64,000 bases of DNA from Paenibacillus cymbidii (lineage in GTDB: Bacteria > Bacillota > Bacilli > Paenibacillales > NBRC-103111), in the NCBI RefSeq assembly GCF_004764705.1, contig NZ_SHLX01000014.1:90953-154952 (forward strand), in the 5' to 3' direction. Numbering within the stretch: position 1 is the first letter of the stretch; every line of letters begins with the position of its first letter. The notes beneath the pieces were generated by a model. That model saw only the letters and a program-made list of their open reading frames with translations. It ran no database searches and was not told where the DNA came from. The position numbers and the translations under genes are program-made. Shown one piece after another: positions 5,320 to 64,000 of this stretch.

Positions 5320-5322
5320 CCG

Positions 5323-10770: not shown

Positions 10771-10773
10771 TGG

Positions 10774-15859: not shown

Positions 15860-16013
15860 CACCTCTCCCCACATTTTATCATAGCTATGCGGCTTGTACA
15901 GTAGGACGTTCCGACTTGCGGAAAGGCGTACATAGCTTGCAAAAGACCAGGTTACTAAGTATGCTAGGTTTATGTGAAAATGTTGTGAAAATCATGTTGG
16001 GGGAGTTGCATTC

Positions 16014-42983: not shown

Positions 42984-43087
42984 GCAGGCGGCGCCCAGCC
43001 CGTCATAAAAATAATGAAACCAGTGTTTTAAAATTGCGATGTACGGTATAATGGCTGCGAACGACCATGTTCCCTAGGAGGAATTCC

Positions 43088-44095: not shown

Positions 44096-44099
44096 TGCA

Positions 44100-44142
44100 A
44101 AAAAACTGCCGGGCCCTGGGGCTTCCGGCAGTTTTTTCGTTT
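44100..44142. terminator. Bidirectional terminator
   Basis: AAAAAACTGCCGGGCCCTGGGGCTTCCGGCAGTTTTTTCG. Confidence 0.75.
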
Positions 44143-44147
44143 CGATG

Positions 44148-44927: not shown

Positions 44928-45037
44928 GTCCGATTCCGCACCCTTCCAGCCTGAAGTTGACTAACTGGTTTAAGCATACGGTTTTCGACGCCGCCGATCT
45001 TGGTCGATTTTACAGAGAATGAAGGCGATCTGATTCG

Positions 45038-45916: not shown

Positions 45917-46079
45917 GGGTCTGCACCTGCCTCGCAAAAAACGGATCGTTAGCTCCGATTATAGTGCATTCCGCGGCGGCTGCCTATAGATTCCCACCTG
46001 AAACTATAGAACTGTCTACTGCCGTCTTCCGGGAAAACCTTTTATAATGAAGGGACGACGGGAGGTGGAGGTTGCGCTC

Positions 46080-47714: not shown

Positions 47715-47718
47715 GGCG

Positions 47719-49554
47719 GTGAGCTTGTTGAAGGAGAACGTCTCGTTCCGCCATCCGGGCGGCCTATTCCGCCGCATCAGCATGCCGCGGAAATGGCTGC
47801 TCGCCTATGTGCTGCTGATCGTCGTCCCGGCGTCGGTCCTGTTTTATTTTTACTATCAGCGATCTTCTTCCGTCCTGAAGCAGGAAGTGACGCGATCGAT
47901 GCAGCAAACGCTGCAACAGGTGGCGCTCAACCTGGGCAACCGGATGGAGCGGGTGGAGGACATCAGCAATTCGGCTATGATGAACTACAACCTGCAGTCC
48001 TATTTGGGCGACGCCAACGGCGACGACTCGATCGGCAAGCAACTGGAAATCGTCAAAGATTTTCGCCAACTGGTCGATTCGATCCAAACGAACGCGGACG
48101 TGTTCAAATTCCGCTTGTTCGTCGATCGGTCGCGTTTGTACGCGGAAGAGCGAATCAATTTTTTTTCGCTGGACAGCCTGGAGGAGCGCCCATGGTATAA
48201 CGACATCATCGAGGGGAACGGCCAAATCGTATGGACTAGCGTCTACAAGGAAACGTTCGTCGACCGCTTCGACGAGCCGGCGCCGTTCATCATCTCCTGC
48301 GCGCGCATGCTGCGCGATCCGTTGGTGTACGATCGGGTTGCCGGCGTCATGATGATCGACGTCAAAGTGAAAACGTTGGCGGATTTTCTTGATAAGCTGA
48401 CGATGACCTGGCAGAGCGCGGTTTATTTGGTCGACGGCAGAGGTACGGTCGTGTACCATCCGGATGAAGCGCGGATCGGCACGACCGTGGATGAACGTAC
48501 CTCCAGCGCCCTCGCAACCGGCAAATCGGTGCAGAAGCTGCTCGGCGGCGCCAAACAAGCCGATTACGTGCTGTCCGCCGCTTTGCCGCTGGCGGGGTTG
48601 CGGGTCGTCGCCGAAATTCCGGCCGCGGAAATCGCCAGCCGCACGCAGAACCAGACGCAGTATACGGGCATCGCCACGTTGCTGGCCATTTTTGCGCTGT
48701 TTCTCGTGCTTGTGTTCGTTTTGCTCGCTTTCATCATCCGGGCCATGAACCGCCGCGTGCAGCAGGTGATCGGCGTGATCCGGCGCGAAGGCATCGAAGG
48801 GTTGACCGATCTGCCGTCCGCCGGCTCCGGCGACTTCGGCATGCTGGAGAGCAGCGTCGACAATCTGGTGCACCGCGTCAGGTCGCTCGTCGAGCAAACG
48901 TACCGGGCGCGCGTGACGGAACGCGAAGCCCAGCTTCGTGCGCTGCAGGCGCAGATCAACCCGCACTTTCTGTACAATACGCTCGACACGATCAATTGGA
49001 TTGCGATCGGTCGCGGCGCCACCGACATCAGCCAGATGATCGACGCACTGGCCAAATATTTCCGCCTGAGCCTGAACGCCGGACGCGACGAAGTCAGCGT
49101 GGAGGACGAGTTGATGCTGGCCAACGTGTATCTGGAGCTGCAGATGACGCGGTTTCCCGGTTCGTTCGAGCTGCAGATCGACGCCGGGGAGGGCGTAGGC
49201 GCGTATGCGATGCCGAAGCTGACGCTGCAGCCAATCGTTGAAAATGCGCTGATGCACGGCATCCGCAAGAAGAAGTCGCGCACGGGCGTCATCCGCATCT
49301 CCGCCGCGATTCGGGGGGAGGAGTTGCTGCTGACCGTATCCGACGACGGCATCGGCATGGATGCGGAGTTGGTCCGGCGGCTGCTTGCCGAGCCGCAGGC
49401 AAAATCCGGCACCGGGCAATCGGGCAGCTCGTACGGTTTGTACAACGTCAACGAACGCATCAAGCTGTATGCGGGCGACAGGTACGGCCTGACCATCGAG
49501 TCCGAGCCGGGCGTCGGCACCACGGTCAGCGTGCGGCTGCAGGCCAGACGCTAG
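47719..49554 (+). CDS. Sensor histidine kinase (YesM-like; two TM helices flanking an extracellular sensor, then HAMP, His-kinase and HATPase domains)
   Basis: …INPHFLYNTLDTINW… (H-box of YesM/LytS type) and …ENALMHGI…GIGM… (N and G boxes). The start is uncertain: GTG 47719, TTG 47725 or ATG 47785. Confidence 0.85.
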   Translation: MSLLKENVSFRHPGGLFRRISMPRKWLLAYVLLIVVPASVLFYFYYQRSSSVLKQEVTRSMQQTLQQVALNLGNRMERVEDISNSAMMNYNLQSYLGDANGDDSIGKQLEIVKDFRQLVDSIQTNADVFKFRLFVDRSRLYAEERINFFSLDSLEERPWYNDIIEGNGQIVWTSVYKETFVDRFDEPAPFIISCARMLRDPLVYDRVAGVMMIDVKVKTLADFLDKLTMTWQSAVYLVDGRGTVVYHPDEARIGTTVDERTSSALATGKSVQKLLGGAKQADYVLSAALPLAGLRVVAEIPAAEIASRTQNQTQYTGIATLLAIFALFLVLVFVLLAFIIRAMNRRVQQVIGVIRREGIEGLTDLPSAGSGDFGMLESSVDNLVHRVRSLVEQTYRARVTEREAQLRALQAQINPHFLYNTLDTINWIAIGRGATDISQMIDALAKYFRLSLNAGRDEVSVEDELMLANVYLELQMTRFPGSFELQIDAGEGVGAYAMPKLTLQPIVENALMHGIRKKKSRTGVIRISAAIRGEELLLTVSDDGIGMDAELVRRLLAEPQAKSGTGQSGSSYGLYNVNERIKLYAGDRYGLTIESEPGVGTTVSVRLQARR

Positions 49555-49589
49555 CGGACAAACCAATCATTCTCCTTTCCCAATGCACC

Positions 49590-50110
49590 TGCCCCCTTAT
49601 GAGCCTGCTTCTTTTGTCAGGTATCCCCTTGACTCAGACCTGAACGGAATATCTTCTTTGGACAGCCCCTTCTGCTCGCTATCCCCTTCGCTCCGTTGGA
49701 ACGGGGTTGTCCTCTCCGGAACTTCCTTTCTGCCCGCTATCCCCTTCGCTCAGACTGGAACCGGGCTGTCCTTTCCGGAACTTCCTTTCTGCCTGCTATC
49801 CCCTTGACTCAACCCCACGCATCAATAACTTTTATCCCATTTCAAGAAATGTACCCCCTACGATGCAGTGACACCATTCAGGTACCCCCCTTCAAACTTG
49901 ATACATCCAAACGTTAACCTGAGCCAAGGGGATAACCAGCAAACACAGCCTTCCATTGACCACCGCCGGCTCGCTCCCTCCTCTTCCCATACACTCACTG
50001 CCGAACCTGCCTGAGCCAATGGGATAACCAACAGTCGCGAACTGCTACTGAGTATACGCGCGCTCGCCGCCGCGCCGGCCTGAGTCAATGGGATAACAAG
50101 CAAATACGTA
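49590..50110. repeat. Non-coding region holding convergent arrays of a 16-18-bp motif (G[CG]TATCCCCTT[CG][AG]CTCAG). There are four direct copies on the + strand at a 57-58-bp period, then three inverted copies.
   Basis: + copies at 49622, 49679, 49737 and 49795 (GGTATCCCCTTGACTCAG / GCTATCCCCTTCGCTCAG). - copies at 49919, 50009 and 50079 (CTGAGCCAAGGGGATAACC…). A further single copy is at 19656-19673. No credible ORF covers the region. Confidence 0.75.
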
Positions 50111-50380
50111 CTTGAGACAGCCACTTTAGCATGGCTTGGCATGTCGGCAAACGAAGGCTGATTTCAGCCTTACAGCAGCATTTTGGTGAGTAGCGGACGA
50201 CATATGACCGATTTCAGCCTTACTGCGGCGCTTCGGGAAGCGTCGGACGTCGAACGTGTTTTTAGGCGGCGGTTAAGTGTGTTTTGCGGTTAAGCTACGA
50301 TCTGCCCCGCAGAGGCACCAGTTTGTCGCCATATTTAGCCATGTTAGCGGCGGATGCCGGGTCAATTCGACGTGACGCTG

Positions 50381-50573
50381 GAATAAGCCATGTTTTATTG
50401 GCTATTTCGCCAAAAAGAAGGACTGCCAACGAAATAGCCAGCGATTTCACTGGCTATTTGGCCGCGGAGCCTGATTTTGGCGCAAGTTGACCCAAATAAC
50501 CAGCGTTTTCACTGGTTATTTCCGGCGGACCGCCGAAAAATGGGCGAATAAGCCATTTTTCATGGCCTATTTC
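50381..50573. repeat. Copy 4 of the four-hairpin repeat element
   Basis: Four units: AATAAGCCATGTTTTATTGGCTATTT, AAATAGCCAGCGATTTCACTGGCTATTT, AAATAACCAGCGTTTTCACTGGTTATTT and AATAAGCCATTTTTCATGGCCTATTT. Spacers are 24, 34 and 25 nt. Confidence 0.8.
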
Positions 50574-50726
50574 TGCGGCGTGGTGCGTGGGGGGCGTGTT
50601 TGTTGAAGAATACGACCAGAAATTAAAGGTTTGCCTTCTACAAGCCCGGACGGCGGCGCCGTTATAATGGCACTATCACGCCGAACCTCCACACCAGTAA
50701 CCAACAACCGAAAGGAGCGCGACAAC

Positions 50727-51692
50727 ATGAGTTTGGCTGCCGAAGAGCCGAACCGACCGGCCGCGCCGGCACGAGCTCGGGCGGAGCGGAAACGGCGCTG
50801 GAAGCTGTTCCGCAACAATTACGAGATGTACGTGCTGCTCCTGCCCGGGCTCGCTTTCCTGCTGCTGTTCAAGTACACCCCGATGTACGGGGTCGTCATC
50901 GCTTTTCAGGACTTCAACATATTCGACGGCATCCGGGGCAGCGCATGGGTCGGCTCGGATCAATTCCAGAAGCTGTTCCATTCCGAGGAATTCATGCAGG
51001 TGTTCCGCAACACGCTCATCATCAGCTTTTACAAAATCGTGCTGCTGTTCCCGGTTCCGATCGTACTGGCCCTGTTTCTGAACGAAGTGGCAAGCATGGC
51101 GTTCAAACGCACGGTGCAAACGGTCGTGTATCTCCCGCATTTTCTGTCCTGGGTCATTATTGCGGGGCTGTTCGTCAACATCCTGTCGCCCTCGGGCGGG
51201 CTCGTCAACCAACTCGTCGTCGCGCTCGGCGGCAAACCGGTATCGTTCCTGATCGACAACGACTGGTTTCGCAGCGTGCTGGTGTTTACGGCGGGCTGGA
51301 AGGAAGCCGGCTGGAACGCGATCATCTTCATCGCCGCCATCGCCGGCATCGATCAGGACCAGTACGAAGCGGCCCGCGTCGACGGCGCCGGGCGAATCAA
51401 GATGATGCTCCACATTACGCTGCCGGGAATCGCGCCGACGATTGTGCTGATGTTCATTTTGCGGATCGGCAATTTGCTGGAGGCCGGTACGGAGCAAATT
51501 TTGACGATGTACAATCCGGTCGTCTACGAAACCGGGGACATCATCGGCACTTACGTCTACCGCGTCGGTCTCGGCAAAATGGACTACAGCTTCAGCACGG
51601 CGGTCGGCTTGTTCAACTCCGTGGTCGGCTTCCTGCTCATCATGTCGGGCAATCTGGTCAGCAAAAAATGGCTGCGTCGCAGCATCTGGTAA
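50727..51692 (+). CDS. Sugar ABC transporter permease (LplB-like, polysaccharide ABC permease)
   Basis: Six-TM MalF-type permease with an EAA loop (…DQYEAARVDGAGRIKMMLHITLP…). The start is ATG after AAAGGAG. The track ORF begins 32 codons earlier. Confidence 0.85.
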   Translation: MSLAAEEPNRPAAPARARAERKRRWKLFRNNYEMYVLLLPGLAFLLLFKYTPMYGVVIAFQDFNIFDGIRGSAWVGSDQFQKLFHSEEFMQVFRNTLIISFYKIVLLFPVPIVLALFLNEVASMAFKRTVQTVVYLPHFLSWVIIAGLFVNILSPSGGLVNQLVVALGGKPVSFLIDNDWFRSVLVFTAGWKEAGWNAIIFIAAIAGIDQDQYEAARVDGAGRIKMMLHITLPGIAPTIVLMFILRIGNLLEAGTEQILTMYNPVVYETGDIIGTYVYRVGLGKMDYSFSTAVGLFNSVVGFLLIMSGNLVSKKWLRRSIW

Positions 51693-51704
51693 GGAGGAGC
51701 AACG

Positions 51705-52583
51705 ATGCGCAAACGGACGAGAGGCGATTGGAGCCTGGACCTGGTTATTTACGGCAGCTTGCTGGTTGCCGCGCTGATCACGCTGCTGCCGTTCGCCAAC
51801 GTTTTGTCGAAGTCGGTCAGCGCGGAATGGGCGGTTGTCTCCGGCAAAGTCGGCATCTACCCGATCGGCTTCCAACTGGAGACGATGAAGTTCGTCGTCA
51901 CTTCCCATGAATTCCAGCATGCTTTTCTGATTTCCGTCCTGGTTACGGTCGTGGGCACGTTGTTGTCGATCCTGATCACGTCGCTCACCGCATACCCGCT
52001 GTCGAAGCGGCACTTGCCCGGCATCGGCGTCATCATGGTGCTGTTCGTGTTCACGATGATGTTCAACGGCGGCATCATTCCGAATTATTTGCTGATGAAG
52101 CAGCTGCATCTGATCAACAGCCTCTGGTCGCTTGTGCTGCCGGCGATGATTAGCGTGTTCAACCTGCTCGTCGTCAAAAGCTATTTCGAAACGGTGCCGG
52201 AAGCGCTGGAGGAATCGGCCCGGATCGACGGCGCGCGCAACCTGACGGTGCTGTTTCGCATCATTCTGCCGATCAGCATGCCGGTGCTGGCGACGATCGC
52301 GCTGTTCTACGCGGTGTATTACTGGAACGATTTTTTCCATCCGATGATGTATTTGAACAGCCCGAACCTGAAGCCGCTGCAGCTTCACCTGCGCGATATG
52401 GTCATGGAAGCGAGCGCTCCGGTGACGACGGCGACCCGGTCGGCCGACGATATTTTGAACGTGTCGACCGAAGGCATTCGCGCCGCCACGATTATCGCGT
52501 CGACGATTCCGATTCTGCTGGTGTATCCGTACTTGCAGAAGTATTTTATCAAGGGCGTCATGATCGGTTCCGTCAAGGGCTGA
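51705..52583 (+). CDS. Sugar ABC transporter permease (LplC-like)
   Basis: MalG-type permease with an EAA loop (…ESARIDGARNLTVLFRIILP…). RBS is AAGGAGGAG. Confidence 0.85.
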   Translation: MRKRTRGDWSLDLVIYGSLLVAALITLLPFANVLSKSVSAEWAVVSGKVGIYPIGFQLETMKFVVTSHEFQHAFLISVLVTVVGTLLSILITSLTAYPLSKRHLPGIGVIMVLFVFTMMFNGGIIPNYLLMKQLHLINSLWSLVLPAMISVFNLLVVKSYFETVPEALEESARIDGARNLTVLFRIILPISMPVLATIALFYAVYYWNDFFHPMMYLNSPNLKPLQLHLRDMVMEASAPVTTATRSADDILNVSTEGIRAATIIASTIPILLVYPYLQKYFIKGVMIGSVKG

Positions 52584-52663
52584 TGGCCCGCTGCCATTAA
52601 TGCGCCAAGTCAAACGCCGGCGCTTAATGATATAGTAAGAATCAGAACAAGGAGGGTTTTTCT

Positions 52664-54241
52664 GTGAAACCAGTCGTCAAACGCACGGCAGCATGGTCGC
52701 TGATTACGGCGATGGCCGTCTCCGCCGCAGCTTGCGGCAACTCGTCCGACAAGTCGTCATCCGGCAATTCCCCCGGCGCGTCGCCTTCCGCTGCGACATC
52801 CGCTTCCGCCGCACCGTCGGCGAAACCGAGCGAAGGGCCCAAGCCGCAGCTTCGTTCGCTACAAATATCGCAAAGCGCCGACTACAACACGTATCCGGTC
52901 GCCAAAGTGCTCGAGGAGAAAACCGGCTATAAGGTGCAATACGACATGCTGCCGGCGGACAAGCCGGAAGACAAGCTGAATTTGCTGATTGCGTCCGGGG
53001 AAGCTTACGACGCGATTACGACGCTGGGCAGCAGCGATGCGAAAGCGCTTTATTCCGACTATGCGAAACGCGGCGCGCTTGTCGATCTCGGCCCGCTTGT
53101 CGACAAGTACGGCCCGAATATTAAAGCGGCCATTTCGCAAGCTTCGCTCGACGCGGCCAAGGTGGACGGCAAGCTGTACGCCATTCCGACCAAATCGCTC
53201 GAATTCAGCGGCTCCGGTCTGATGATCCGGCAAGACTGGCTCGACAAGCTCGGGCTCAAGGCGCCGACGACGACGGACGAACTGACGACAGTCCTGAAGG
53301 CGTTCAAGGAAAAAGATCCGGGCGGCAACGGCGACAAAAACGTGCCGCTGACGATGAAAGGCGAAGTGCCGTTCATCGAAGGCATCGCCGGCGCCTTCGG
53401 GCTGGCGAACGGCTGGAACGACGCAAACGGCAGTCTCGTGCCGCGCGCGCTCGACGCCGGCTACAAGGAGTACGTCAATTACTTGTCCGGCCTGTTCAAG
53501 GACGGCCTGCTGGACAAGGAAGCGGCGATCAACAAGGACGCGAACATGAAGGAGAAGTTCTCGAGCGGCAAAGCCGGCATGGCGCCGATCAACTGGGCCG
53601 ACGTGCCGACCCTTTCCGACGCGTTGAAGAAAGCCGTTCCCGACGCCAAGGTCGTTTACATCCCCGCGCTGAAGGGGCCGAACGGCAAATACGGCTATTC
53701 CGCCACGGCGGGCTTCGATCGCCTGACCTTCATTCCGAAGGCGTCGAAGCACCCGGAGGACGCGGTCAAATGGCTGAACGCCAAGCTCGATCCGGCCACG
53801 TTCAAGCTGATGGCGATCGGCGAAGAGAACAAGCATTATACGTTCAAGGACGGCGCCTATACGCCGATTCTGCCGATCTTCACGGATGAGCGCAACTTCG
53901 CGAACAACTTCCTGATGGGCGTCGACGAGAAAAATTACCCGACGTATTGGCAGGCGCGCGTGCGCAAGGATCCGCGTTTGTTCGAGGCTTGGGAATATTT
54001 GAACGTGAAGCAGCCGGCCGACACGCGCAAAATCGATCCGCTCGGCCTGAGCCCGTACCTGGCCGACTATTCGAAGAACAACCTGTCGCTGAATACGCTG
54101 GTCAACGAACAAACGGTGAAATTCATCGTCGGCGCGGACCCGCTTGCGAACTACGACGCGTTTGCGGCGAAGTACAAGTCGTCGGGCGGCGACGCCAGCG
54201 TCAAGGAAGTCAACGATTGGTACAAGACGGTGAAAAAATAA
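52664..54241 (+). CDS. Extracellular solute-binding lipoprotein of a polysaccharide ABC transporter (LplA-like, ~525 aa)
   Basis: GTG start after GGAGGG. The lipoprotein signal has an AAC lipobox (…AVSAAACGNSS). The large family-1 SBP fold is typical of Paenibacillus sugar-utilisation loci. Confidence 0.85.
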   Translation: MKPVVKRTAAWSLITAMAVSAAACGNSSDKSSSGNSPGASPSAATSASAAPSAKPSEGPKPQLRSLQISQSADYNTYPVAKVLEEKTGYKVQYDMLPADKPEDKLNLLIASGEAYDAITTLGSSDAKALYSDYAKRGALVDLGPLVDKYGPNIKAAISQASLDAAKVDGKLYAIPTKSLEFSGSGLMIRQDWLDKLGLKAPTTTDELTTVLKAFKEKDPGGNGDKNVPLTMKGEVPFIEGIAGAFGLANGWNDANGSLVPRALDAGYKEYVNYLSGLFKDGLLDKEAAINKDANMKEKFSSGKAGMAPINWADVPTLSDALKKAVPDAKVVYIPALKGPNGKYGYSATAGFDRLTFIPKASKHPEDAVKWLNAKLDPATFKLMAIGEENKHYTFKDGAYTPILPIFTDERNFANNFLMGVDEKNYPTYWQARVRKDPRLFEAWEYLNVKQPADTRKIDPLGLSPYLADYSKNNLSLNTLVNEQTVKFIVGADPLANYDAFAAKYKSSGGDASVKEVNDWYKTVKK

Positions 54242-54517: not shown

Positions 54518-54570
54518 TTTCGTGGTTATTGAAATAGTCAATCGTTCGGAGGAAGAGGTATAGTAAAGCC
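54518..54570 (+). promoter_or_regulatory. Conserved ~45-bp upstream element (copy A): TTTCGAAACGTTTTCGTGGTTATTGAAATAGTCAATCG, then 24 nt, then TATAGTAAAG
   Basis: It matches 62688-62745 almost base-for-base. A reduced version (AGTCAA-N17-TATAGTAAG) lies upstream of the SBP gene at 52620-52650. Confidence 0.6.
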
Positions 54571-54687
54571 AATCCGGGCGAAAGGAGGGAGCGCATCAAG
54601 GGGACGGACGTCCCGTCTGCGTCGACAGCACGAGCAGCAGCGGAGAATGTCGAACAATCAGCGTTAAAGGAGGACGAATTCGCGACG

Positions 54688-57600
54688 ATGAAACGATGGA
54701 AAAGCAAGCTGGCCGGGCTTCTGGTTTGCATCTTGTTTGCGGGGGTTATCAATGTTTCTTTGATTACGCCGGCAAGTGCGGATAATTCGGATACGGCGGT
54801 ACTGTTTCAAGACGGATTCGAGAACGGGTTCTCGAATTGGACGACACTTGCCGGAACGCCGGCGACGAGCAAGGTGCGCGCCCACAACGGACGCAACAGC
54901 TTCGCCGTCAGTCAGAATCAGCAAGCGATTCAATACAGCCTCGGCAGCAATTCGAATCAAGTGGCCGCGGTTTGGTTTTACGACGACGCGAGCGATTCGG
55001 ACATGGCGGTGATGGCGTTTGCCGACCGCAATGTATCGGTCGTCGGCATCGGGGTCAATACGACGGTCAGCGTGACGAACTACGTGTACCGGATCGGCGC
55101 CAACACGTACGTGTCGACCGCCGCGAGAACGACCGGCTGGCACAGCCTGTCGTACGATTACCGCTCCGGCAGCAAGGCGGTGCTGTACGTGGACGGCGAG
55201 AAGATCGCCGAAACGACGGCGGAAACGTCGTTCAACCGGATCGGGCTGGGCGATTTCTGGGCCGACGGGAAAACGGGAACTGTGTACTATGACGATGTTT
55301 TCGTGCAGAAGCGCCTGCCGTGGGATCCGGAGACAGTCGACCATCCGACGCCGCTGGCTCCGCTGCTGCAGGCGAGCCAGCCGGGCGGCATCACCATCAG
55401 GGACGACTTCGAGAACGGCCTCGGACGCTGGTCCGTCTTGTACGGCGCTCCCGCAACGAGCACGGCTCAAAAACACGGCGGCGCCTCCAGTTATGCCGTC
55501 GCGCAAGACCAGAGCGCCATTCGCTACGATATTGCCAAAACGAATAAAGTCGTCGTCGCCTGGTTCTACGACGATACGTCGAAACCGTCGACGCAAGTGA
55601 TGGCTTATGCCGACGCGTACAGCTCGGCGCTCGCGCTCATCGGCATCGGCGTTCACAGTGCCGCAAGCGTCACGAAATACGTTTACCGGATCGGCACCGA
55701 CGAATCGGTTTCCGCCGTATCGCGGAGCACCGGCTGGCACAGCCTCTCGTTCGATTATCGGTCGGGAACCGGCGTGACCTTGTATATCGACGGCACCCAA
55801 ATTGCCGCCTCGACGGCCGAGGTTGCCGTGAGCCGGATTTCGCTAGGCGATTTCTGGCCGGACGGGAACACGAGCGGCGCCTATTTCGACGACGTCGCCG
55901 TACAGGACTATTTGCCGTGGGAAACGCCGACCGCCCCTGCCGGCATCACATTCATGGACGGCTTCGACAACGGCTTCACCGCCTGGACGACCCAGTTGGG
56001 AACTCCCGCCGCCAGCGCGGATCGGTCGCACGACGGCCGCAACAGCTTCGTTCTGAACCAGAACCAGGTGGCCATCCAGCACAACATGGGATCGAGCTTG
56101 CGCAAGGTCGTCTCCGTCTGGTTGTTTGACGATGCGGCCAACGCCAATTCGACGGCATATGCCTACGTCGACAATTCGTCCGCTGCTGTGGGGCTTGGCG
56201 TCAATACGTCAGTCAGCGGAACGTATTATGTTTCCGCCATCGGCGCAACCGCGGCAACGACCTCCGTCAAGCGCAGCTCCGGCTGGCACCAGCTCGTGTT
56301 CGACTACCGGTCGACGGGCGGCGTCGTGCTGTACATCGACGGGGAGCAAGTCGGCACCACCGCTTCGGTCAATGCATTCAATCGCATCGCGCTGGGCGAT
56401 TATTGGTCGGGCACGACCAGCAACGTCTATTTCGACGACGTCAGCGTCAAGGACGGCCTGCCCTGGGATACGGCAATCGCGCCGTTCGTCGACGGCTTCG
56501 ACGGCGGGCTCGCCTACTGGGCCTCTGCAGCCGGTCATGCGGACACGACGACCATGCGCGCCCATAACGGCAACTTCAGCTATGTGCTGAACGAAGATAC
56601 GGATGCCGTGCAGCATAACATGGGCTACAAAGTGAACAAAGTCGCCGTCGTCTGGATGTACGACGATGCCGAGAAGGATGCGCTGCATGCGGAAGCGCTC
56701 GTCGATCGCGGCGTCACGGCGATCGGTCTCGGCGTCGATACGGGCGTCAGCGCCGCCAACTATGTGTACCATATCGGCGGCACAACCGTCGCTTCCTCCG
56801 TACCACGCAAGACGGGGTGGCACAGCCTCGCCTTCGATTATACGTCCGGAACCGGCGTTACGCTGTACATCGACGGCAAACAAGTCGCCGCTTCGTCTTC
56901 GGAAACCGTGTTCAACCGCATCGCGTTCGGCGATTTCTGGAGCGACGGGGTAACCGGCTATATCGAATTCGACGATGTCGCCGTGCAGGACACCGTTCCT
57001 GCTCCGCCCGGACAGCCGCTGTTCCGCGAAAGCTTCGAATCGGGGCTGACGAACTGGATCGTGCAATCCGGGACGCCGACGCTCGGCACGGCGCAGGCGC
57101 ATGACGGGCAGAAGAGCTTCGCGCTCGATCAGGACGTCGTGATGATCCAGCACAACATGGGCATCTCCGCCAACAAGGTGGCCGTCGTCTGGTTCTACGA
57201 TACGGCCAACAATTCGGCCGTGCAGTCGTACGCCTTCGTCGACAACGGCTCGTCGCTGGTTGCGCTGGGCGCGGTCAGCGCCACAAGCGCGACCCACTAT
57301 ATTTACCGGATCGGCAGCACGCAGAGCGTTTCTTCGGTGCCGCGAACGCCGGGCTGGCACAGCTTCGTCTTCGATTACCGCTCCGGCCGCGACGTAACGC
57401 TGTATATCGACGGCCGCACCGTAACGACGACGACAACGTCGGCATCGTTTACGCGGATCGGGCTTGGCGATTACGGACTCGGCGTCACTTCGAACGGCAT
57501 GTACTTCGACGATGTGACGGTGCAGGACCAGCTTCCGGTCATTCACAGCTTCGACGACGGCTTCGAAGCCGGCTTTGCCAACTGGACGGCAGCGTACGGC

Positions 57601-60465
57601 ACGCCTTCGGCAAGCTCGTCGCAGAAGCACGCGGGCAATAACGCCTACGCGGTGAACGAAGATGTCGACGCGATTACCCGCACCGTCGCCGGCACGAACG
57701 GCGCGGCGACGTTCTGGTTCTACGACACGGCCGCGCCGACGCTGCAGGCGATGGCGTTCGCCGACGGCGCTACCATTGTCGGGCTTGGGGTAAGCACGCC
57801 GGTCAATGCGGCGAAATACGTGTACCGGATCGGTGCGACCACGACCGCAACGACGCTTGATCGTACGGCCGGCTGGCACAGCCTGACGTTCGATTATCGC
57901 AGCGGTACCGGCGTCACCCTGTCCATTGACGGCCATCAGGTGGCGACGACAACGGCGATAACGGCGTTCACCCGACTGGCTATGGGCGACTTTTGGCCGG
58001 ACGGTTCGACCGCCAACGTTTTCTTCGACGATGTCAGCATCGGCCAGTTTACGCCGTGGGAGTCGGATCCGGCGTTTGTTGCGCCGCCGCACTTCACCGC
58101 AGCGGACGCGATGGGCTTCGAGGCGGACGGGGCATGGCGCAGCGAGGCGTATATCCTCGAAGACAATCCGAATCTCGTGGAATCCGACTTGTGGGAATCC
58201 CGCACCACCTCGCTGGCAGCATTGTCCGCCGGCGTAGTGGAAACGAACGAGCATGTAGCGGAAGGGGCGCTTTCCGGCAAATGGAGCAATCATCCGTATT
58301 ATCCGACCATTTCGACGCGTTCGATCGAACACGACTGGTCGACGTACAACACGATTTCGTTTGCGGTTTATTCGGAGGTCGCCACCGGGGAAACGATCCA
58401 TCTGCTTGCCTTCTCCGACAATGCGGCTACGTATTGGGAGGAGTTCTACTACTTCCCGTTCACGATCGATTTCACCGGCTGGAAAACGTTCGACATTCCG
58501 TTCGCCGCCTTTACGCCGTACGGCGATCCTGCCGGCTGGAACGACGTTAGCGAGCTCGCTTTTGCAACCAAAGCGTTAAACAAGCAGCCGAGTCCCGACA
58601 CGGTCGTTCATCTCGACGCGATTCATCTGCGCAGCGAAACGGCGACGACGCTGGACACGCTGCTGGCCGGGCTTGCCGCTTCTTCGCCGCAGCCGGTCAA
58701 CTACATGACGAAATATCCGGCCGGCTTCAAGGCGGTGTCGCTGGAGGACTACCTGCTGTACGTGAACAACAAGATCGAGTACGACACGGCAGCATCCGCC
58801 AGACAGCTGGAAATCCGGGCGGAAAATAACGCGATTCTGGCGAAGTACGGCATCGCGGGAACGGACGGCGACTATGCGCTGAACCAGTTCGTCGATGCGC
58901 AGCCGGCGATCGCCACGTCGCACGACGTCATGCCGTTCGACCCGGGCGCGCTCAATCACGGCTTCGCGGAGCTGCACGCCGCGCCGGCCGGAGGCACGGT
59001 CGAATACCAGTCGTATTGGAAAAACGAACGCGCGCTGTACGGCTACAACCCGCAATTCCAGGTGGCGCCGGTATCGGTTGACGTGTACGGCAACAAGTAC
59101 CTGAAATACAGCGATTCGATCATCGAAACGTATCATGCCGGGGCGGACCGCTGGCTCTACCATGACATCGAGCCGGTCTATCGCAAGTACGTCACCGACA
59201 CGCTTGGCTGGTACGGTTACTGGCATCGCGACGACGGCTTCTACAACGATGTCAAAATCCGCTTCGACAACGACGGCGACGCGTATATCTTGTCCACGCT
59301 GCTGGAAGTGAGAGCGAACGGCACTACCGGAGACATCGTCGGGGTGCTGCTGTATTCGCACGACAAGATGAAAACATGGACCGCGTACGCGCTGCCGAAT
59401 CCGTTCTCCAAATTCGAGAACATCGACTCGAACAACGCCGATGCGCTGAATCGGCCGCCCGTCATCACGCTGCACGATTATTGGTATCACGCCAGACAGA
59501 ACAAAAGCGGCTACCTCCTCATCCCGCAGAAGCAGCCGGACGGCACGCTGGTCATTCCGCCGCGCACGAAGTTTTGCGACAGCTGCCTGCAGACGACGGT
59601 TTACCATTCCGGCGACGCCAATATTGCGGTAACGGCAGGAGACAAGGTATACCTGGCTTACAGCGTAAATGAAATCGAACGCAGTCCGGCGATCCCGGCG
59701 AACCATCCGGCGAATACGATGTCGTGGACGTACAACGGCCGTACGTACGAGAGCAAAAACGGCTCTCCCGCGTTCGTCGTCAGCTACGACATCAACACGG
59801 GGCAAGTGTCCGCTCCCGTCTTCATCGGGTATGCCGGCAGCGTTCCGTACGACGACCATGACTGGCCGGCGATCGAAATCGACAGTACCGGACATCTTCA
59901 CGCTTTCATCAACGGCCATCACAATCCGCTCACCCACACGGTAACGAACAGCGCCTACGATATTTCCTCGTGGTCGGTGCCGGAGCTGGTCGGGTTGGCC
60001 AACTCCTACGCGGCGATTACGATGGACGCGGACGATACGATTCATGTCGTTACCCGCGATTCGGCGCGCGGCTATCGGTTCGACCAGTCGTATTTCCGCA
60101 AGAAAGCGGGCCAGCCTTGGGAAGGGCCGGTCAATCTCGTGAAACGGTTCAAGCCGTATTACGAGGTGGCGAACCAGCGGATGTCCATCGATCCGACAAC
60201 GGGCAAATTGTTCGTATCGTATTACGGCCAATCGCGTTCGGTGCAAATTTACAAGGACGAGTATGACGCCTATACGTACATTTGGCCGGATCGGGAGAAG
60301 CTGATGAATCCGCGCAACGTGGCCGGACCGGTCGGCTCCTACAAAACGCCGCGCGGCTCTTACGGCACGATGGCGAGCATTCCCGCGACGGAAATGACGA
60401 TTCTGACGTCCGACGACGGCGGGGATACGTGGCATTTGGCGACGACGCCCGATTTTGCACCATAA
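54688..60465 (+). CDS. Giant secreted protein (1925 aa): signal peptide, 7 tandem ~175-aa LamG-like/concanavalin-type lectin repeats, a CBM-like β-sandwich region, and a C-terminal BNR (Asp-box) domain
   Basis: Signal peptide MKRWKSKLAGLLVCILFAGVINVSLITPASA. Seven repeats each hold D(G)FE(N)GF…W…G…HxG..S…TGWHSL(S/A)FDYRSG…(Y/F)FDDV.VQ. The same periodicity shows at DNA level (ACCGGCTGGCACAGCCT… recurring every ~530 nt). A C-terminal Asp-box SDDGGDTW is present. The gene has its own RBS and a perfect 9-bp hairpin after the stop. Confidence 0.8.
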   Translation: MKRWKSKLAGLLVCILFAGVINVSLITPASADNSDTAVLFQDGFENGFSNWTTLAGTPATSKVRAHNGRNSFAVSQNQQAIQYSLGSNSNQVAAVWFYDDASDSDMAVMAFADRNVSVVGIGVNTTVSVTNYVYRIGANTYVSTAARTTGWHSLSYDYRSGSKAVLYVDGEKIAETTAETSFNRIGLGDFWADGKTGTVYYDDVFVQKRLPWDPETVDHPTPLAPLLQASQPGGITIRDDFENGLGRWSVLYGAPATSTAQKHGGASSYAVAQDQSAIRYDIAKTNKVVVAWFYDDTSKPSTQVMAYADAYSSALALIGIGVHSAASVTKYVYRIGTDESVSAVSRSTGWHSLSFDYRSGTGVTLYIDGTQIAASTAEVAVSRISLGDFWPDGNTSGAYFDDVAVQDYLPWETPTAPAGITFMDGFDNGFTAWTTQLGTPAASADRSHDGRNSFVLNQNQVAIQHNMGSSLRKVVSVWLFDDAANANSTAYAYVDNSSAAVGLGVNTSVSGTYYVSAIGATAATTSVKRSSGWHQLVFDYRSTGGVVLYIDGEQVGTTASVNAFNRIALGDYWSGTTSNVYFDDVSVKDGLPWDTAIAPFVDGFDGGLAYWASAAGHADTTTMRAHNGNFSYVLNEDTDAVQHNMGYKVNKVAVVWMYDDAEKDALHAEALVDRGVTAIGLGVDTGVSAANYVYHIGGTTVASSVPRKTGWHSLAFDYTSGTGVTLYIDGKQVAASSSETVFNRIAFGDFWSDGVTGYIEFDDVAVQDTVPAPPGQPLFRESFESGLTNWIVQSGTPTLGTAQAHDGQKSFALDQDVVMIQHNMGISANKVAVVWFYDTANNSAVQSYAFVDNGSSLVALGAVSATSATHYIYRIGSTQSVSSVPRTPGWHSFVFDYRSGRDVTLYIDGRTVTTTTTSASFTRIGLGDYGLGVTSNGMYFDDVTVQDQLPVIHSFDDGFEAGFANWTAAYGTPSASSSQKHAGNNAYAVNEDVDAITRTVAGTNGAATFWFYDTAAPTLQAMAFADGATIVGLGVSTPVNAAKYVYRIGATTTATTLDRTAGWHSLTFDYRSGTGVTLSIDGHQVATTTAITAFTRLAMGDFWPDGSTANVFFDDVSIGQFTPWESDPAFVAPPHFTAADAMGFEADGAWRSEAYILEDNPNLVESDLWESRTTSLAALSAGVVETNEHVAEGALSGKWSNHPYYPTISTRSIEHDWSTYNTISFAVYSEVATGETIHLLAFSDNAATYWEEFYYFPFTIDFTGWKTFDIPFAAFTPYGDPAGWNDVSELAFATKALNKQPSPDTVVHLDAIHLRSETATTLDTLLAGLAASSPQPVNYMTKYPAGFKAVSLEDYLLYVNNKIEYDTAASARQLEIRAENNAILAKYGIAGTDGDYALNQFVDAQPAIATSHDVMPFDPGALNHGFAELHAAPAGGTVEYQSYWKNERALYGYNPQFQVAPVSVDVYGNKYLKYSDSIIETYHAGADRWLYHDIEPVYRKYVTDTLGWYGYWHRDDGFYNDVKIRFDNDGDAYILSTLLEVRANGTTGDIVGVLLYSHDKMKTWTAYALPNPFSKFENIDSNNADALNRPPVITLHDYWYHARQNKSGYLLIPQKQPDGTLVIPPRTKFCDSCLQTTVYHSGDANIAVTAGDKVYLAYSVNEIERSPAIPANHPANTMSWTYNGRTYESKNGSPAFVVSYDINTGQVSAPVFIGYAGSVPYDDHDWPAIEIDSTGHLHAFINGHHNPLTHTVTNSAYDISSWSVPELVGLANSYAAITMDADDTIHVVTRDSARGYRFDQSYFRKKAGQPWEGPVNLVKRFKPYYEVANQRMSIDPTTGKLFVSYYGQSRSVQIYKDEYDAYTYIWPDREKLMNPRNVAGPVGSYKTPRGSYGTMASIPATEMTILTSDDGGDTWHLATTPDFAP

Positions 60466-60525
60466 AGAAACAGAAGGGGACATGGACGGTTCATGTCCCC
60501 TCATCTCACCCGAGGAGGAAGCGGC

Positions 60526-62661
60526 ATGATCATCGCCCGGGAGTGGAGAAACCGTTACTTTATTCGTTTGGCGCTTTCATACGGCATGTTGGCCGTCCTG
60601 CTGATCGGCGCTGCAGGCGGCTATTTGTTCAACCGCGCGAATCGGGTCATGATCGACGAAATGTTCAAGGACAGCCAGCACAATTTGAACAATATCAAGG
60701 ATTACGTGGAAAATACGTTTCTGCAGCGATACGAAGATACGTTCATGAGCAAGGTGATGACGACCGTCAACCGGGACAGTCTCGATGAACTGCAATACCT
60801 GCTTGAACACGATACGGAAAAAGACGCCTACCGCATTACGCGTTTCATATATGACATGGGTGCGATCGCTTCCGCGAACGACGGCATGTCCGGCATTACC
60901 GTGCTGCTGAAAAAAGCGAATTACGTGATCGACGAGCAATATTATTATCACACCCCCGCCAACTCGCCGGATTACGATTTTATCCGCACGCTGGACGAAA
61001 CGGCGCCCAATCGCTGGACGAAACGGACCAAAGGCTCTACGGGCAAAGAAGTGCTGACTTATGTGTATTCGCTTCCCTACAAATCGATCAATAAATACGC
61101 CCTCGGGTATTTGTATCTGGATATGGATCTTGACTATATGAACAAAATGATCCGCCAGATGACCAGCTCGTCCCAGGAAAGGCTGCTCATTTTCGACAAA
61201 GACGGCAGGCTCGTCTTCCAGAATCAGCCCGGCAGCGACAGCTCGCAACGACTGGTGCAGGACATCGTCCGCGAAAACCGCTCCGAGCCGTTCGTGACCA
61301 AGGACACGAAGGAAGGCAGCATCGTCGCCTATTTGCCCAATCGCGATTCACGCAACGAATGGAGCTACGTGCTCGTCAAGCCGGTGAATTCGTTCCTGCT
61401 GACGACGGATCAATTCAAGAACGACATTCTGCGCGGCTGCCTGATCGTGCTTGTTGCCGGCCTGTTGTCGTCGTTGTTCATCTCGAACCGGTTTTCTTTG
61501 CCGCTGAAGCGGCTGGTGCTGCGCATGGGCGAACAAACCCGCAGCAGCAACGTGGTGCATCTGCTCAACGGGAACGTCGGCGATATCGACGACATTACAA
61601 GCTTGCCGACGCAGTGCCAATACGTAGCCGTTTATGTAAAAGGCGCCGCGGGCGTCCGGGAACGGTTCACGAACGAATTCGCCGGACCGTCCCGCGCGGC
61701 GGGTTGCGATACCGTAAGCGTCAACGCGCAATCCACGGCGATTTTGTTCTACCGCGACAGCGCGGAGGAGGAGCCGGTGCGGGCCGTCAGGAAAGAAATG
61801 GAGCGCTGGTTGTTCGAAACGGCCGGCGACCGGCAAATCGTCGTTGGCATCGGGCACGCGGCGCAAACCCCGGAAGAGGTGCACCGGTCGTGGGTGAACG
61901 CCGCATATGCCAGCAAGTACAGCTTCATCTTCGGCTGCCCCGCCGTCGTCGCATACGACGATGTAAAGGAGCGCAGGCCGCAGCATGTGCCGTTCCCGTT
62001 CGAGCCGTTCTCGAACGCGCTGCTCGCCGGCGATTGGCGGGCCGCCCTGCCGATGATCGACAAATTTGCCGAGGAGCTGGCCGTCGCCGACATGTCGCTG
62101 GAATCGTTCGAAGTCAACATCATGCAATTCGTCATGTCGTTGTCCGGGTTTATTATCGACCACGGTCTGCAAGCCGAGTTTCCGAGCTCCGCGTTGTTCG
62201 CGGACGTCAAGAAACCCACCTTCGCCGAAACCGTGCAGCGGATGAAGGAAATTTGCCTGCCGGTAGCCACCTTGTTCGCACAGCGGGCTACCAACGGGCA
62301 TACGCGGATGATCCATGAGTTGAAAGCTTATGTGGACAGCCATATGGAGGAGGACCTGTCGCTGGATTCGCTGGCGGCCAAGGCGGGGCTTACGCCCAAT
62401 TATGTGTCCTTGCTGTTCAGGGAAGTGCTGCACACATCCGTGGTCGACTACATCAACAAGGTACGGCTGGAAAAAGCGGCGCAGCTGCTCCAGGAGACGA
62501 GAGCGACGGTGGCGGATATCGCGGCGCAGTCGGGGTACCGCAACGTCCCGTATTTCTGCACCAAATTCAAGGCGAAGTACGGCATTACGCCGATCCAGTA
62601 CCGGCAAGCGGCCGGCGGAGGAAAGTACATTCCCGCGGAATCGTCCGCGGCGGGGGAATGA
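60526..62661 (+). CDS. Membrane-anchored AraC-family regulator with an extracytoplasmic (Cache-like) sensor domain
   Basis: N-terminal TM helix (FIRLALSYGMLAVLLIGAAGGYLF), a ~270-aa periplasmic domain, a second TM helix, and a cytoplasmic domain ending in an AraC HTH pair (…YFCTKFKAKYGITPIQYRQ). RBS is GAGGAGGAAG. Confidence 0.8.
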   Translation: MIIAREWRNRYFIRLALSYGMLAVLLIGAAGGYLFNRANRVMIDEMFKDSQHNLNNIKDYVENTFLQRYEDTFMSKVMTTVNRDSLDELQYLLEHDTEKDAYRITRFIYDMGAIASANDGMSGITVLLKKANYVIDEQYYYHTPANSPDYDFIRTLDETAPNRWTKRTKGSTGKEVLTYVYSLPYKSINKYALGYLYLDMDLDYMNKMIRQMTSSSQERLLIFDKDGRLVFQNQPGSDSSQRLVQDIVRENRSEPFVTKDTKEGSIVAYLPNRDSRNEWSYVLVKPVNSFLLTTDQFKNDILRGCLIVLVAGLLSSLFISNRFSLPLKRLVLRMGEQTRSSNVVHLLNGNVGDIDDITSLPTQCQYVAVYVKGAAGVRERFTNEFAGPSRAAGCDTVSVNAQSTAILFYRDSAEEEPVRAVRKEMERWLFETAGDRQIVVGIGHAAQTPEEVHRSWVNAAYASKYSFIFGCPAVVAYDDVKERRPQHVPFPFEPFSNALLAGDWRAALPMIDKFAEELAVADMSLESFEVNIMQFVMSLSGFIIDHGLQAEFPSSALFADVKKPTFAETVQRMKEICLPVATLFAQRATNGHTRMIHELKAYVDSHMEEDLSLDSLAAKAGLTPNYVSLLFREVLHTSVVDYINKVRLEKAAQLLQETRATVADIAAQSGYRNVPYFCTKFKAKYGITPIQYRQAAGGGKYIPAESSAAGE

Positions 62662-62687: not shown

Positions 62688-62745
62688 TTCGAAGCATTTT
62701 CGAGGTATTTGAAATAGTCAATCGCACGGGCGTTACGTTATAGTA
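62688..62745 (+). promoter_or_regulatory. Conserved ~45-bp upstream element (copy B): TTTCGAAGCATTTTCGAGGTATTTGAAATAGTCAATCG, then 24 nt, then TATAGTAGG
   Basis: See copy A. It lies ~90 bp upstream of the SBP start at 62823. Confidence 0.6.
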
Positions 62746-62822: not shown

Positions 62823-64000
62823 ATGAACGTCCGCAAGGGGTTGACGGTGATGACGGCGGCGCTGATCGCCGCTTGGTCGCTTTCGGCTTGTTCCGGCAAG
62901 ACGAACGGCGCGAAGGAGGCGAACGCGGCGACGTCCGGCGTTTCGGCCGAGGCAGCGGAGGAGCCGGTTGAAATCAAGTGGATCGGCTTCTATCCCCCGG
63001 ACAGCGACAATTCGTATGTGCAGCAATACCTGGAAAAGAAATTCCACGTCGCCATCAAAAACATGAGGCTGGACCGAACGGCGTCGGCCCAGCAGCTGAA
63101 CGTGAAGCTGGCCATGGGCGACATTCCCGACATCATTCCCCCGTACGTCGATATCAACGCTTATGCCAACATGGTGCAGCAGGGAATTGCGGCGGAGCTC
63201 CCCTTGGAAGAAATCCGCCACTATATGCCAAGGTACGCCAAATTTATCGACGACATGGACCCATCGCTTTGGAACATCGGGATGATCGACGGCAAAAACT
63301 ACGGCATCCCGAAAACGTATGCCGAAGGGGACGCCTATTTTGTCCCGGCCTACAATGCGGCCTGGCTGCGGGCGATCGGCTACAGCGAGCCGCCGCGGAC
63401 GCTTGCCGGGCTGGAGGACGTGCTGACGAAGTTTCGCGAGAACGACCCGGACGGCAACGGCAAGAAAGATACGTACGGCTTTTCGGCTCGCGGCAAGGAT
63501 ACGCTCGGTTCCAACCAGATTTTCAACACCGTGTTCGGCGCGTACGGCATCAACCCGAACGCCTGGATGGAAACGAACGGCAAGCTGCAGTTCGGGATTA
63601 CACTGGAAGGCGCGAAACAAGCGTTCATCACGCTGAACAAGTGGTACAAGGCGGAGCTGATCGATCCGGAGTTCATCACCATGGACTGGAACCAGTACCG
63701 GGTCAAGTTCGTCGGCGGCAAAGTCGGCATGTCCGATCAGGCGCTCTGGTATCATCTCGACCCCAGCGGGACGCTGGGCGCGGACGCGCTGAATGCGGGC
63801 ATGACGTTCGTTGTCGGACAGCCGCTGCAAGGTCCGGGCGGCAAACGGTACGCCGGTGCGCAAGGGCTCGGCCAGGTGCCCTATATCATGAGCGCCGACG
63901 CCCACAAGGACGTAAAGAAGCGGGAAACGATTTATCGCATCATGGACGCGTTGGCGATGGACCCCGAGGTGTATCGTGCCGCCGTGTACGGCGAGAAAGG
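62823..64000 (+). CDS. Second extracellular solute-binding lipoprotein (sugar ABC transporter SBP); the 3' end runs off the window
   Basis: ATG after GGGAGG. Lipobox LSAC (…LIAAWSLSACSGK). The frame is open to the window end. The track only lists the antisense shadow ORF (62733..63905, -), which I reject. Confidence 0.8.
   Translation, partial: MNVRKGLTVMTAALIAAWSLSACSGKTNGAKEANAATSGVSAEAAEEPVEIKWIGFYPPDSDNSYVQQYLEKKFHVAIKNMRLDRTASAQQLNVKLAMGDIPDIIPPYVDINAYANMVQQGIAAELPLEEIRHYMPRYAKFIDDMDPSLWNIGMIDGKNYGIPKTYAEGDAYFVPAYNAAWLRAIGYSEPPRTLAGLEDVLTKFRENDPDGNGKKDTYGFSARGKDTLGSNQIFNTVFGAYGINPNAWMETNGKLQFGITLEGAKQAFITLNKWYKAELIDPEFITMDWNQYRVKFVGGKVGMSDQALWYHLDPSGTLGADALNAGMTFVVGQPLQGPGGKRYAGAQGLGQVPYIMSADAHKDVKKRETIYRIMDALAMDPEVYRAAVYGEK

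Follow-up and report, generated by a model that had tools for sequence, protein, structure and literature searches.

A giant secreted protein of Paenibacillus cymbidii with six LamG-like repeats and a BNR_4-type propeller: a candidate polysaccharide lyase from an uncharacterised clade

We analysed a stretch of 64,000 nucleotides of Paenibacillus cymbidii DNA (the window), in which one gene encodes a protein of 1925 residues, called the giant protein here; residue numbers refer to these 1925 residues and nucleotide positions to the window. The gene lies among those of a YesMN-type two-component system, the permeases and lipoprotein solute-binding protein (SBP) of an ATP-binding cassette (ABC) importer, a membrane sensor-regulator of the AraC type and a second SBP (Table 1). 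A preliminary description of the locus had listed yesN/yesM-like, lplABC-like transporter, membrane AraC sensor and second SBP genes, all of which were recovered with Pfam, around a 1925-residue reading frame with a signal peptide, which is a single intact open reading frame (ORF) preceded by a ribosome-binding site. Its general reading, a locus for polysaccharide use, also holds, and the pairing of sensor, permeases and SBP recurs beside relatives of the gene. We argue below that the giant protein is a candidate secreted lyase.

Table 1. Features of the giant gene and its neighbours in the window
Feature	Residues	Window positions	Strand	Basis or remark
YesN-like response regulator (Response_reg + AraC HTH), 46047-47714, and YesM-like histidine kinase (dCache_1 + His_kinase + HATPase_c), 47719-49554		46047-49554	+	Pfam
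ABC importer cassette 1: BPD_transp_1 permeases, 50631-51692 and 51705-52583; lipoprotein SBP, 52664-54241		50631-54241	+	Pfam
Promoter-like TAGTCA-18-TATAGT overlapping the exact 16-mer TTGAAATAGTCAATCG		54529-54564	+	Sequence search
Ribosome-binding site aaaggagga, 14 nt 5' of ATG		54666-54674	+	Read directly
Whole ORF, 1925 residues + stop	1-1925	54688-60465	+	WP_135553854.1 (P. cymbidii)
Sec signal peptide: (M)KRWKSK n-region, hydrophobic core, cleavage ASA/D	1-31	54688-54780	+	Read directly from the sequence
ConA/LamG-like repeat 1	36-208	54793-55311	+	Pfam, repeat HMM
ConA/LamG-like repeat 2	235-407	55390-55908	+	Repeat HMM, AF2-modelled copy
ConA/LamG-like repeat 3	418-589	55939-56454	+	Pfam, repeat HMM
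ConA/LamG-like repeat 4	600-768	56485-56991	+	Repeat HMM
ConA/LamG-like repeat 5	777-947	57016-57528	+	Repeat HMM
ConA/LamG-like repeat 6	952-1120	57541-58047	+	Repeat HMM
CBM11-like beta-sandwich	1168-1276	58189-58515	+	Pfam CBM_11, 39.5 bits (cut-off 27)
Predicted three-helix linker	1319-1386	58642-58845	+	Model, low to medium confidence
Predicted seven-bladed beta-propeller, BNR_4 superfamily	~1409-1925	58912-60462	+	AF2 model, Foldseek, Pfam
Degenerate Asp-box SHDKMKTW	1557-1564	59356-59379	+	S, D and W kept in 87-94% of the family
Putative catalytic two-blade segment (D1722, H1724, H1744, Y1774, R1790)	1693-1800	59764-60087	+	Homologous to PL25 residues 98-207 and GH145 chain 83-186
C-terminal Asp-box SDDGGDTW	1908-1915	60409-60432	+	Motif search
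Membrane sensor-regulator (dCache_1 + GGDEF_2-like + AraC HTH)		60493-62661	+	Pfam; 28 nt after the stop of the giant gene
Second lipoprotein SBP, extending past the window end		62823-64000	+	Preceded by promoter-like element 62709-62744

The giant protein carries the NCBI name "carbohydrate binding domain-containing protein", and a 97%-identical protein from a metagenome-assembled genome (MAG) is named "BNR-4 repeat-containing". A scan of all 1925 residues with NCBIfam matched zero families, and neither reading of the sequence nor Pfam revealed a cell-anchoring module (SLH, LPXTG/sortase motif or lipobox) in the giant protein. The intergenic region 5' of the gene is about 450 bp long and has a hairpin with a T-run after the upstream SBP gene.

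The C-terminal part (residues 1281-1925, the C-terminal query) was modelled with AlphaFold2 (AF2) from a 13-sequence alignment. The model (predicted local distance difference test [pLDDT], 78.6; predicted template modelling score, 0.82) has three helices and then an all-beta region over query residues 182-628. Searched with the propeller model, Foldseek returned the PLL/PHL lectins first (2.5e-10), then sialidases (1e-7 to 1e-6), polysaccharide lyase (PL) family PL25 (1.2e-7), glycoside hydrolase (GH) family GH145 (3e-7) and PL42 (2e-6), and the best fold matches are seven-bladed. The structure match alone identifies the predicted domain as a seven-bladed beta-propeller and does not single out lyases; the seven blades of PL25 enzymes are present in the model. 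With the Pfam model BNR_4 (PF15892), homologues at 35-50% identity to the giant protein scored 35-60 bits, above its cut-off of 27.3. Upstream of the propeller, the CBM-like module or beta-sandwich of the preliminary description is identified by Pfam as CBM_11 (carbohydrate-binding module family 11). Most full-length family members carry this module fused to the propeller, and the family profile matched the solved CBM11 structure (1V0A) weakly (E = 0.1).

The terminal Asp-box SDDGGDTW noticed earlier is present. A second clean Asp-box was not found in the giant protein, where the degenerate SHDKMKTW is the sole other candidate, and the Pfam BNR motif model scored 12.7 bits against a cut-off of 27. 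The C-terminal domain had been taken for a sialidase- or GH-type Asp-box propeller, and this assignment does not stand: no sialidase family matches, and the sequence links lead solely to the BNR_4 lyase superfamily. A sialidase of the GH33 type was accordingly rejected, with no sialidase family in Pfam at E ≤ 1, the low BNR score, one canonical and one degenerate Asp-box, and best fold matches that are seven-bladed. The giant protein is probably not a sialidase; its sequence points to an enzyme that cuts acidic polysaccharides.

A search with residues 1281-1925 returned 12 homologues, all 12 with a precomputed BNR_4 match and most also with CBM_11; the best was a 1005-residue Paenibacillus protein (51% identity). 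Searched exhaustively with a profile, 1.84 billion representatives yielded 2713 matches at E ≤ 1e-3 and 417 at E ≤ 1e-30, and 103 of the best 150 (lengths of 439 to 1744 residues) span the whole propeller region. In a one-genome-per-species GTDB set of about 185,000 species genomes, the clade was found in 28, at 28 loci, which belong to Cohnella, Clostridia, Armatimonadota, Lentisphaerota/Victivallales, Zipacnadia, Pirellulaceae, Chamaesiphon, Spirochaetes and Verrucomicrobiales. Its range covers soil and freshwater Paenibacillaceae, Armatimonadota, Lentisphaerota, Planctomycetota and cyanobacteria. The N-terminal extensions differ among members (LamG-like repeats, Big_5 or Cu_amine_oxidN1), and therefore the unit of CBM11-like module and propeller is the conserved core. 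The clade is not assignable to PL24, PL25 or PL42 and is an uncharacterised clade of the BNR_4 superfamily. The earlier statement that the enzymatic specificity is unassigned is borne out, as the giant protein could not be placed in any existing CAZy-type family of known specificity.

Two family loci have unusual gene arrangements. On a Logan contig (L032, 6974-11755), a CBM11-containing N-terminal part (967 residues) and a BNR_4 propeller (614 residues) are called as adjacent genes, which is either a natural split or a frameshift. A MAG contig (L036) carries two paralogous BNR_4 family genes (3795-6212 and 8603-11044, encoding 805 and 813 residues), with a major facilitator superfamily transporter and a GFO_IDH_MocA gene between them.

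The link to lyases comes from one segment of the propeller. A phmmer search against all chains of the Protein Data Bank (PDB) had the PL25 ulvan lyase 5UAM at the top (3.8e-5), followed by its mutant 5UAS, and the 5UAM alignment pairs query residues 381-540 with chain residues 32-209. Since only this part aligns, at that E value, the whole-domain sequence similarity by which CAZy defines membership of PL25 is lacking. The family profile matched the GH145/PL42-type structures 4IRT (1.8e-6) and BT3686 (2.8e-6) and PL25 (5.8e-6), all in one common segment; the Bacteroides GH145/PL42-type proteins 4IRT, BT3686, BACCELL_00856 and BACINT_00347 span 1.8e-6 to 6e-5. A hidden Markov model (HMM) of the C-terminal half of the propeller scored 20-43 bits on 40 PL25-family fragments. 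The fragments used in the HMM tests were metagenomic and of at most 309 residues, and they represent the C-terminal part of PL25 by short fragments only.

In the PL25 enzyme PLSV_3936, Arg204 is the neutraliser, Tyr188 the base and His123 the acid, and the adjacent His143 is conserved in PL42 (PMC8377490, PMC13193363). Alignment with hmmalign places PL25 D121, H123, H137, H143, Y188 and R204 on D1722, H1724, H1738, H1744, Y1774 and R1790, so that, as far as this alignment goes, the giant protein has the putative catalytic His/Tyr/Arg set of PL25 together with the counterpart of His143 (H1724, H1744, Y1774 and R1790 are H444, H464, Y494 and R510 of the C-terminal query). Among 104 representatives (50% identity clusters), each of these four residues is conserved in 99%, and Y1825 in 100%. 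Y1825 might be the counterpart of PL25 Tyr246, which, like the Zn-site residues His264, Cys266 and His278, falls outside the alignable region. Two ulvan-contact residues of PL25 are replaced in the giant protein, Asn122 by Asp and Lys125 by Trp. The retention of the PL25 catalytic residues, combined with the replacement of the contact residues, is our main argument for reading the propeller as a beta-eliminating lyase with a different substrate. That substrate is probably not ulvan, given the loss of Asn122 and Lys125, the terrestrial origin of the organism and the lack of a sulfatase gene in the part of the locus within the window (about 3.5 kb beyond the giant gene).

The position of this segment in the chain differs from that in the known enzymes. 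In PL25 and GH145 it lies at chain residues ~64-209, in blades 2-3 of about 440 residues, and in the giant protein at query residues 413-520, in units 5-6, a blade order derived from DSSP of the model and alignment offsets. About 195 residues of beta structure precede the PL25-equivalent start, and about 105 follow the equivalent end. The simplest reading of catalytic blades that come so late in the model is that the propeller may be circularly permuted by about three blades. By sequence, an HMM of the N-terminal half run on the PL25 fragments (≤309 residues) and hhalign of the N-terminal half and the C-terminal tail against C-terminal parts of PL25 gave matches of Asp-box length only, and the tail had no significant match to the fragments.

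The propeller also has a family-specific segment before its first clear blade, at residues 1421-1465 (59104-59238), with the pattern LNH..PE...YQ.Y...ERALY.Y.P. The 13 closest members all have its N, H, E, Y, E, R and Y, and conservation of Y1453 and P1455 reaches 97-99% among the 104 representatives. The segment has no PL25 counterpart, is modelled at a pLDDT of only 57-74, and may be a lid or part of a second site.

Taken together, these data lead us, with moderate confidence, to consider the giant protein a candidate secreted beta-eliminating lyase for a uronic-acid polysaccharide, whose products would feed the adjacent ABC importers under the control of the YesMN-type and membrane AraC-type sensors. 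The N-terminal modules would act as noncatalytic carbohydrate-binding or spacer units, through which the protein would attach multivalently to a glycan that is insoluble or gel-like. Beta-elimination by the propeller would then break a sugar-(1->4)-uronic acid bond and release unsaturated oligosaccharides; by analogy, the bond would most likely be Rha-(1->4)-GlcA (rhamnose to glucuronic acid) or a similar one in an acidic polysaccharide of plants or microbes. From the PL25 match, H1724 would be the acid, Y1774 the base and R1790 the carboxylate neutraliser, with H1744 equivalent to His143. The unsaturated oligosaccharides would be imported by the flanking SBP-dependent ABC systems, and the YesMN-type two-component system, the membrane Cache-AraC sensor or both would activate expression. 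The gene context supports polysaccharide utilisation and is silent on the substrate and on whether the protein is a lyase.

Several observations weigh against a lyase. The likeness to known lyases is limited to about 100-160 residues, and the N-terminal half of the propeller has no similarity to PL25 that the HMM on PL25 fragments or hhalign could detect. The giant protein itself reaches only 23.2 bits with BNR_4 (residues 1715-1795; E = 5e-5), below the Pfam cut-off. The PL25 Zn ligand His208, which is outside the profile alignment, pairs with Tyr in one pairwise alignment and is apparently not kept. In the part of the window ORFs that was scanned, no unsaturated-uronyl hydrolase gene of GH88 or GH105 and no Kdu-type gene turned up, and GH88, GH105 and Kdu are not among the 25 listed of the 89 families matched by the 86 nearest ORFs of 25 loci. 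No published study of the clade was found in the literature on BNR_4/PF15892, newer PL families, PL42 with Paenibacillus, or P. cymbidii. Finally, GH145 members with the same anterior residues are hydrolases that act at another site and not lyases (PMC8377490).

This last point leads to the strongest alternative, that the giant protein is a glycoside hydrolase with its active site elsewhere, either on the posterior face as in GH145 or as in a sialidase-type Asp-box propeller, which is essentially the view of the preliminary description. The best PDB matches of the family profile are indeed the Bacteroides GH145-type 4IRT and BT3686, and BT3686 hydrolyses its substrate despite its anterior His, His and Arg (PMC8377490). 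Several sialidases are on the Foldseek list, Asp-boxes are present, and the family-specific N-terminal segment of the propeller is rich in conserved polar residues (E167 and R168, 85-87%; D247, 99%; C-terminal query numbering) that could form another site. Nevertheless, Pfam gives no match to a sialidase or GH family, and the strongest conservation falls on the four lyase residues (99%). The posterior catalytic His48 of the GH145-type rhamnosidases pairs with Ala in the giant protein and with Ser in the family profile (VTHGDEQYISY versus VTAGDKVYLAY), an absence read from a weak, nonsignificant, though collinear, alignment of the preceding blade. On balance we regard a hydrolase as unlikely.

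Less probable again, and in our view quite doubtful, is a noncatalytic glycan-capture protein, in which the propeller would be a fucose/rhamnose lectin of the PLL/PHL type and, with seven jelly-roll modules, would concentrate glycan for the ABC systems. About 60% of the giant protein consists of binding-type modules, and its NCBI name refers to carbohydrate binding alone. However, the PLL lectins are only 9-12% identical to the propeller (sequence E = 0.3), and lectin propellers repeat one motif per blade, whereas here a single lyase-like His/His/Tyr/Arg constellation is 99% conserved. Moreover, with no SLH, LPXTG or lipobox, the protein would be freely released, and a freely released binder would be of little use.

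The N-terminal part of this candidate lyase had been described as seven near-identical repeats of about 175 residues with a jelly-roll fold. Motif counting gave six GWH...FDY and six xFDDV blocks spaced by 173-199 residues, a repeat HMM found exactly six domains, at residues 39-208, 236-407, 420-589, 600-768, 778-947 and 954-1119, a second HMM built from the repeats of relatives alone found the same six, and no seventh repeat appeared with the repeat HMMs over the whole protein at --max and E ≤ 100. The repeats number six, not seven, and are far from near-identical, with pairwise identities of 42-52% in protein and 56-61% in DNA, and Tandem Repeats Finder did not detect the array in the giant gene. 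The visibility of the repeats in the DNA through the GWHSLxFDYRSG and xFDDVxVQD blocks was confirmed by a DNA repeat finder, which returned six-copy families at 63-78% identity. The jelly-roll units were also upheld, at about 170 residues: Pfam Laminin_G_3 matched six stretches (2.8e-18; 66.9 bits against a cut-off of 27.6), and repeat 2, as modelled with AF2 (pLDDT, 88.7), folds as a ConA-like jelly-roll, for which Foldseek listed Cip1, the calreticulin lectin domain, GH16, CBM66 and a phage esterase domain (1e-6 to 1e-4). By Pfam score and modelled fold, the repeats belong to the Laminin_G_3/ConA-like lectin-glucanase superfamily.

The same repeat type is found in close relatives, with 1 copy in Paenibacillus sp. 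IB182496, 4 in each of two metagenomic proteins (P0027 and P0028), 5 in Cohnella fermenti and 6 here (local HMM); the local HMM found the type in P0001, P0022, P0027 and P0028. The count, which had been called unusually high, is the maximum of the clade but falls on the 1-4-5-6 series of the relatives. All copies across relatives are 37-70% identical, and clean positional orthology was not seen. When the repeat profile was run against 5.8 billion proteins in a word-indexed search, it gave one further fragment and missed relatives known to carry the repeat, so the rarity of the type is suggestive only and partly reflects the low sensitivity of this search. Apart from the general caution that tandem repeats are prone to mis-assembly, nothing favours an artefact of collapse or expansion that would make length and copy number unreliable, a concern raised in the preliminary description, and we dismiss it because the six-copy layout recurs in an independent assembly (MBO9607586.1, a partial protein of an independent Paenibacillaceae MAG, 97% identical with zero gaps over residues 116-1925) and the copies have diverged (they differ at ~40% of nucleotides, so that reads map uniquely, and form no Tandem Repeats Finder array), with intact ORFs of relatives carrying 1, 4, 4 and 5 copies.

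Around the gene of the candidate lyase, the first SBP (52664-54241) is 24% identical to an SBP_bac_1 protein that adjoins the homologue of Paenibacillus sp. IB182496. An AraC sensor, two permeases and an SBP also flank homologues in IB182496, on the Logan contig with CBM11 and BNR_4 as separate genes and on an ENA contig. Other neighbours vary, with a Pect-lyase_RHGA_epim protein in IB182496, SASA and GH95 in Cohnella, and rhaM, a sulfatase and a faint GH43-like match in a metagenomic relative. Pfam revealed no recurrent neighbour among the 86 nearest ORFs of 25 genomic loci, and the gene context outside Paenibacillaceae is uninformative because there is no recurrent partner. In the window, no other carbohydrate-active enzyme (CAZyme) was found among the ORFs scanned with Pfam, which cover part of it.

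There are just two exact copies of the 16-mer TTGAAATAGTCAATCG in the 64 kb, at 54529-54544 before the giant gene and at 62709-62724 before the second SBP gene. Each copy overlaps the -35 of a TAGTCA-18-TATAGT element, and the flanks are similar. The shared 16-mer and promoter-like element suggest that the enzyme gene and the downstream SBP gene are coregulated, and TTGAAATAGTCAATCG may be a putative shared operator for one AraC-type regulator; it is absent from the Cohnella and IB182496 loci. The 1.07-kb noncoding spacer that separates the histidine kinase gene from the first permease gene (49555-50630) contains three tandem units of ~58 nt that share the core GCTATCCCCTTSRCTCA, this core in three inverted copies, and four palindromic units resembling AAATAGCCAGCGATTTCACTGGCTATTT. 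This spacer has no Rfam match and no convincing ORF, and the Rfam scan of the whole window returned nothing. Its repeats could be a regulator-binding array or elements like repetitive extragenic palindromes.

Just upstream of the two-component system (43067-45937) lie genes for a GFO_IDH_MocA oxidoreductase (+), a PhyH-family dioxygenase (-) and a cupin-AraC regulator (-). A GFO_IDH_MocA gene also adjoins a family member in the metagenomic locus L036, and 2-Hacid_dh, AP_endonuc_2 and URO-D genes near family members are common to L036 and another locus, L033; together these neighbours hint at a shared downstream sugar-acid pathway. Farther away (14549-15874, minus strand), a 442-residue enzyme with NAD_binding_2 and NAD_binding_11, of the 3-hydroxyisobutyrate/6-phosphogluconate dehydrogenase type, is fused to a C-terminal PilZ domain, which binds cyclic di-GMP, an unusual fusion.

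Multimodular uncharacterised CAZymes are common in Paenibacillaceae. This clade nevertheless offers a concrete, testable candidate for a new PL family, possibly on a permuted propeller, with four named residues and a defined construct to start from. If the giant protein is an active lyase, the BNR_4 catalytic scaffold would reach new habitats and probably a new substrate as well, and the clade could found a new PL family in CAZy. The 1-to-6 series of a private binding module is a natural experiment on how a secreted enzyme is tuned by multivalency. Should the protein lack activity or prove to be a hydrolase, it would join GH145 as an example of a lyase-type site kept without lyase function. 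As a tentative extension, which we consider possible rather than likely, the CBM11-like and propeller core may form a new PL family that places the PL25-type His/Tyr/Arg machinery on a circularly permuted propeller (blades 2-3 moved to 5-6), acts on a terrestrial acidic glycan other than ulvan and, in Paenibacillaceae, carries a private ConA-like module amplified from 1 to 6 copies.

The characterised members of the BNR_4 superfamily are the PL24 and PL25 ulvan lyases and the L-Rha-alpha-1,4-GlcA lyases of PL42/GH145. To our knowledge, all characterised propeller enzymes of the BNR_4 type cleave Rha-(1->4)-uronate linkages, either of marine ulvan or of gum-arabic caps. PLSV_3936 of PL25 (5UAM/5UAS) shares with the giant protein the seven-bladed propeller, predicted here, and an Asp-box-like turn after the catalytic Arg. 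The two differ in sequence (about 15-17% identity, with ~160 residues alignable) and in the place of the catalytic blades (2-3 in PLSV_3936, units 5-6 in the giant protein). PL25 enzymes are marine single-domain proteins of ~470 residues, whereas the giant protein comes from a terrestrial Firmicute and has seven extra modules in its 1925 residues.

PL42 and the former GH145 (the L-Rha-alpha-1,4-GlcA lyase FoRham1, BT3686, 4IRT and BACCELL_00856) share the segment D-x-H-N...G-H-H...Y-R-S (profile E values of 1.8e-6 to 9e-6), a place in the Pfam BNR_4 superfamily, whose cut-off relatives of the giant protein exceed but it does not reach, and the conserved His/His/Arg trio of the anterior face (PMC8377490). 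Only about 100 residues are alignable, however, and PL42 enzymes are exo-acting, single-domain proteins of ~420 residues. In PL42, a His is both base and acid and there is no counterpart of Tyr188, whereas the family of the giant protein keeps the PL25-type Tyr. The Photorhabdus PLL/PHL lectins are more distant in sequence, with the low, nonsignificant similarity given above, and they have binding sites in every blade and lack the His/Tyr/Arg catalytic constellation.

The nearest systems are those of Cohnella fermenti (1744 residues), Paenibacillus sp. IB182496 (1005 residues) and the metagenomic P0027 and P0028, whose CBM11-like and propeller core is ~50% identical to that of the giant protein. 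They have in common with it the private LamG-like repeat type and an AraC sensor, permeases and an SBP as neighbours; the genes downstream differ, being SASA and GH95 in Cohnella and that of the Pect-lyase_RHGA_epim beta-helix protein in IB182496.

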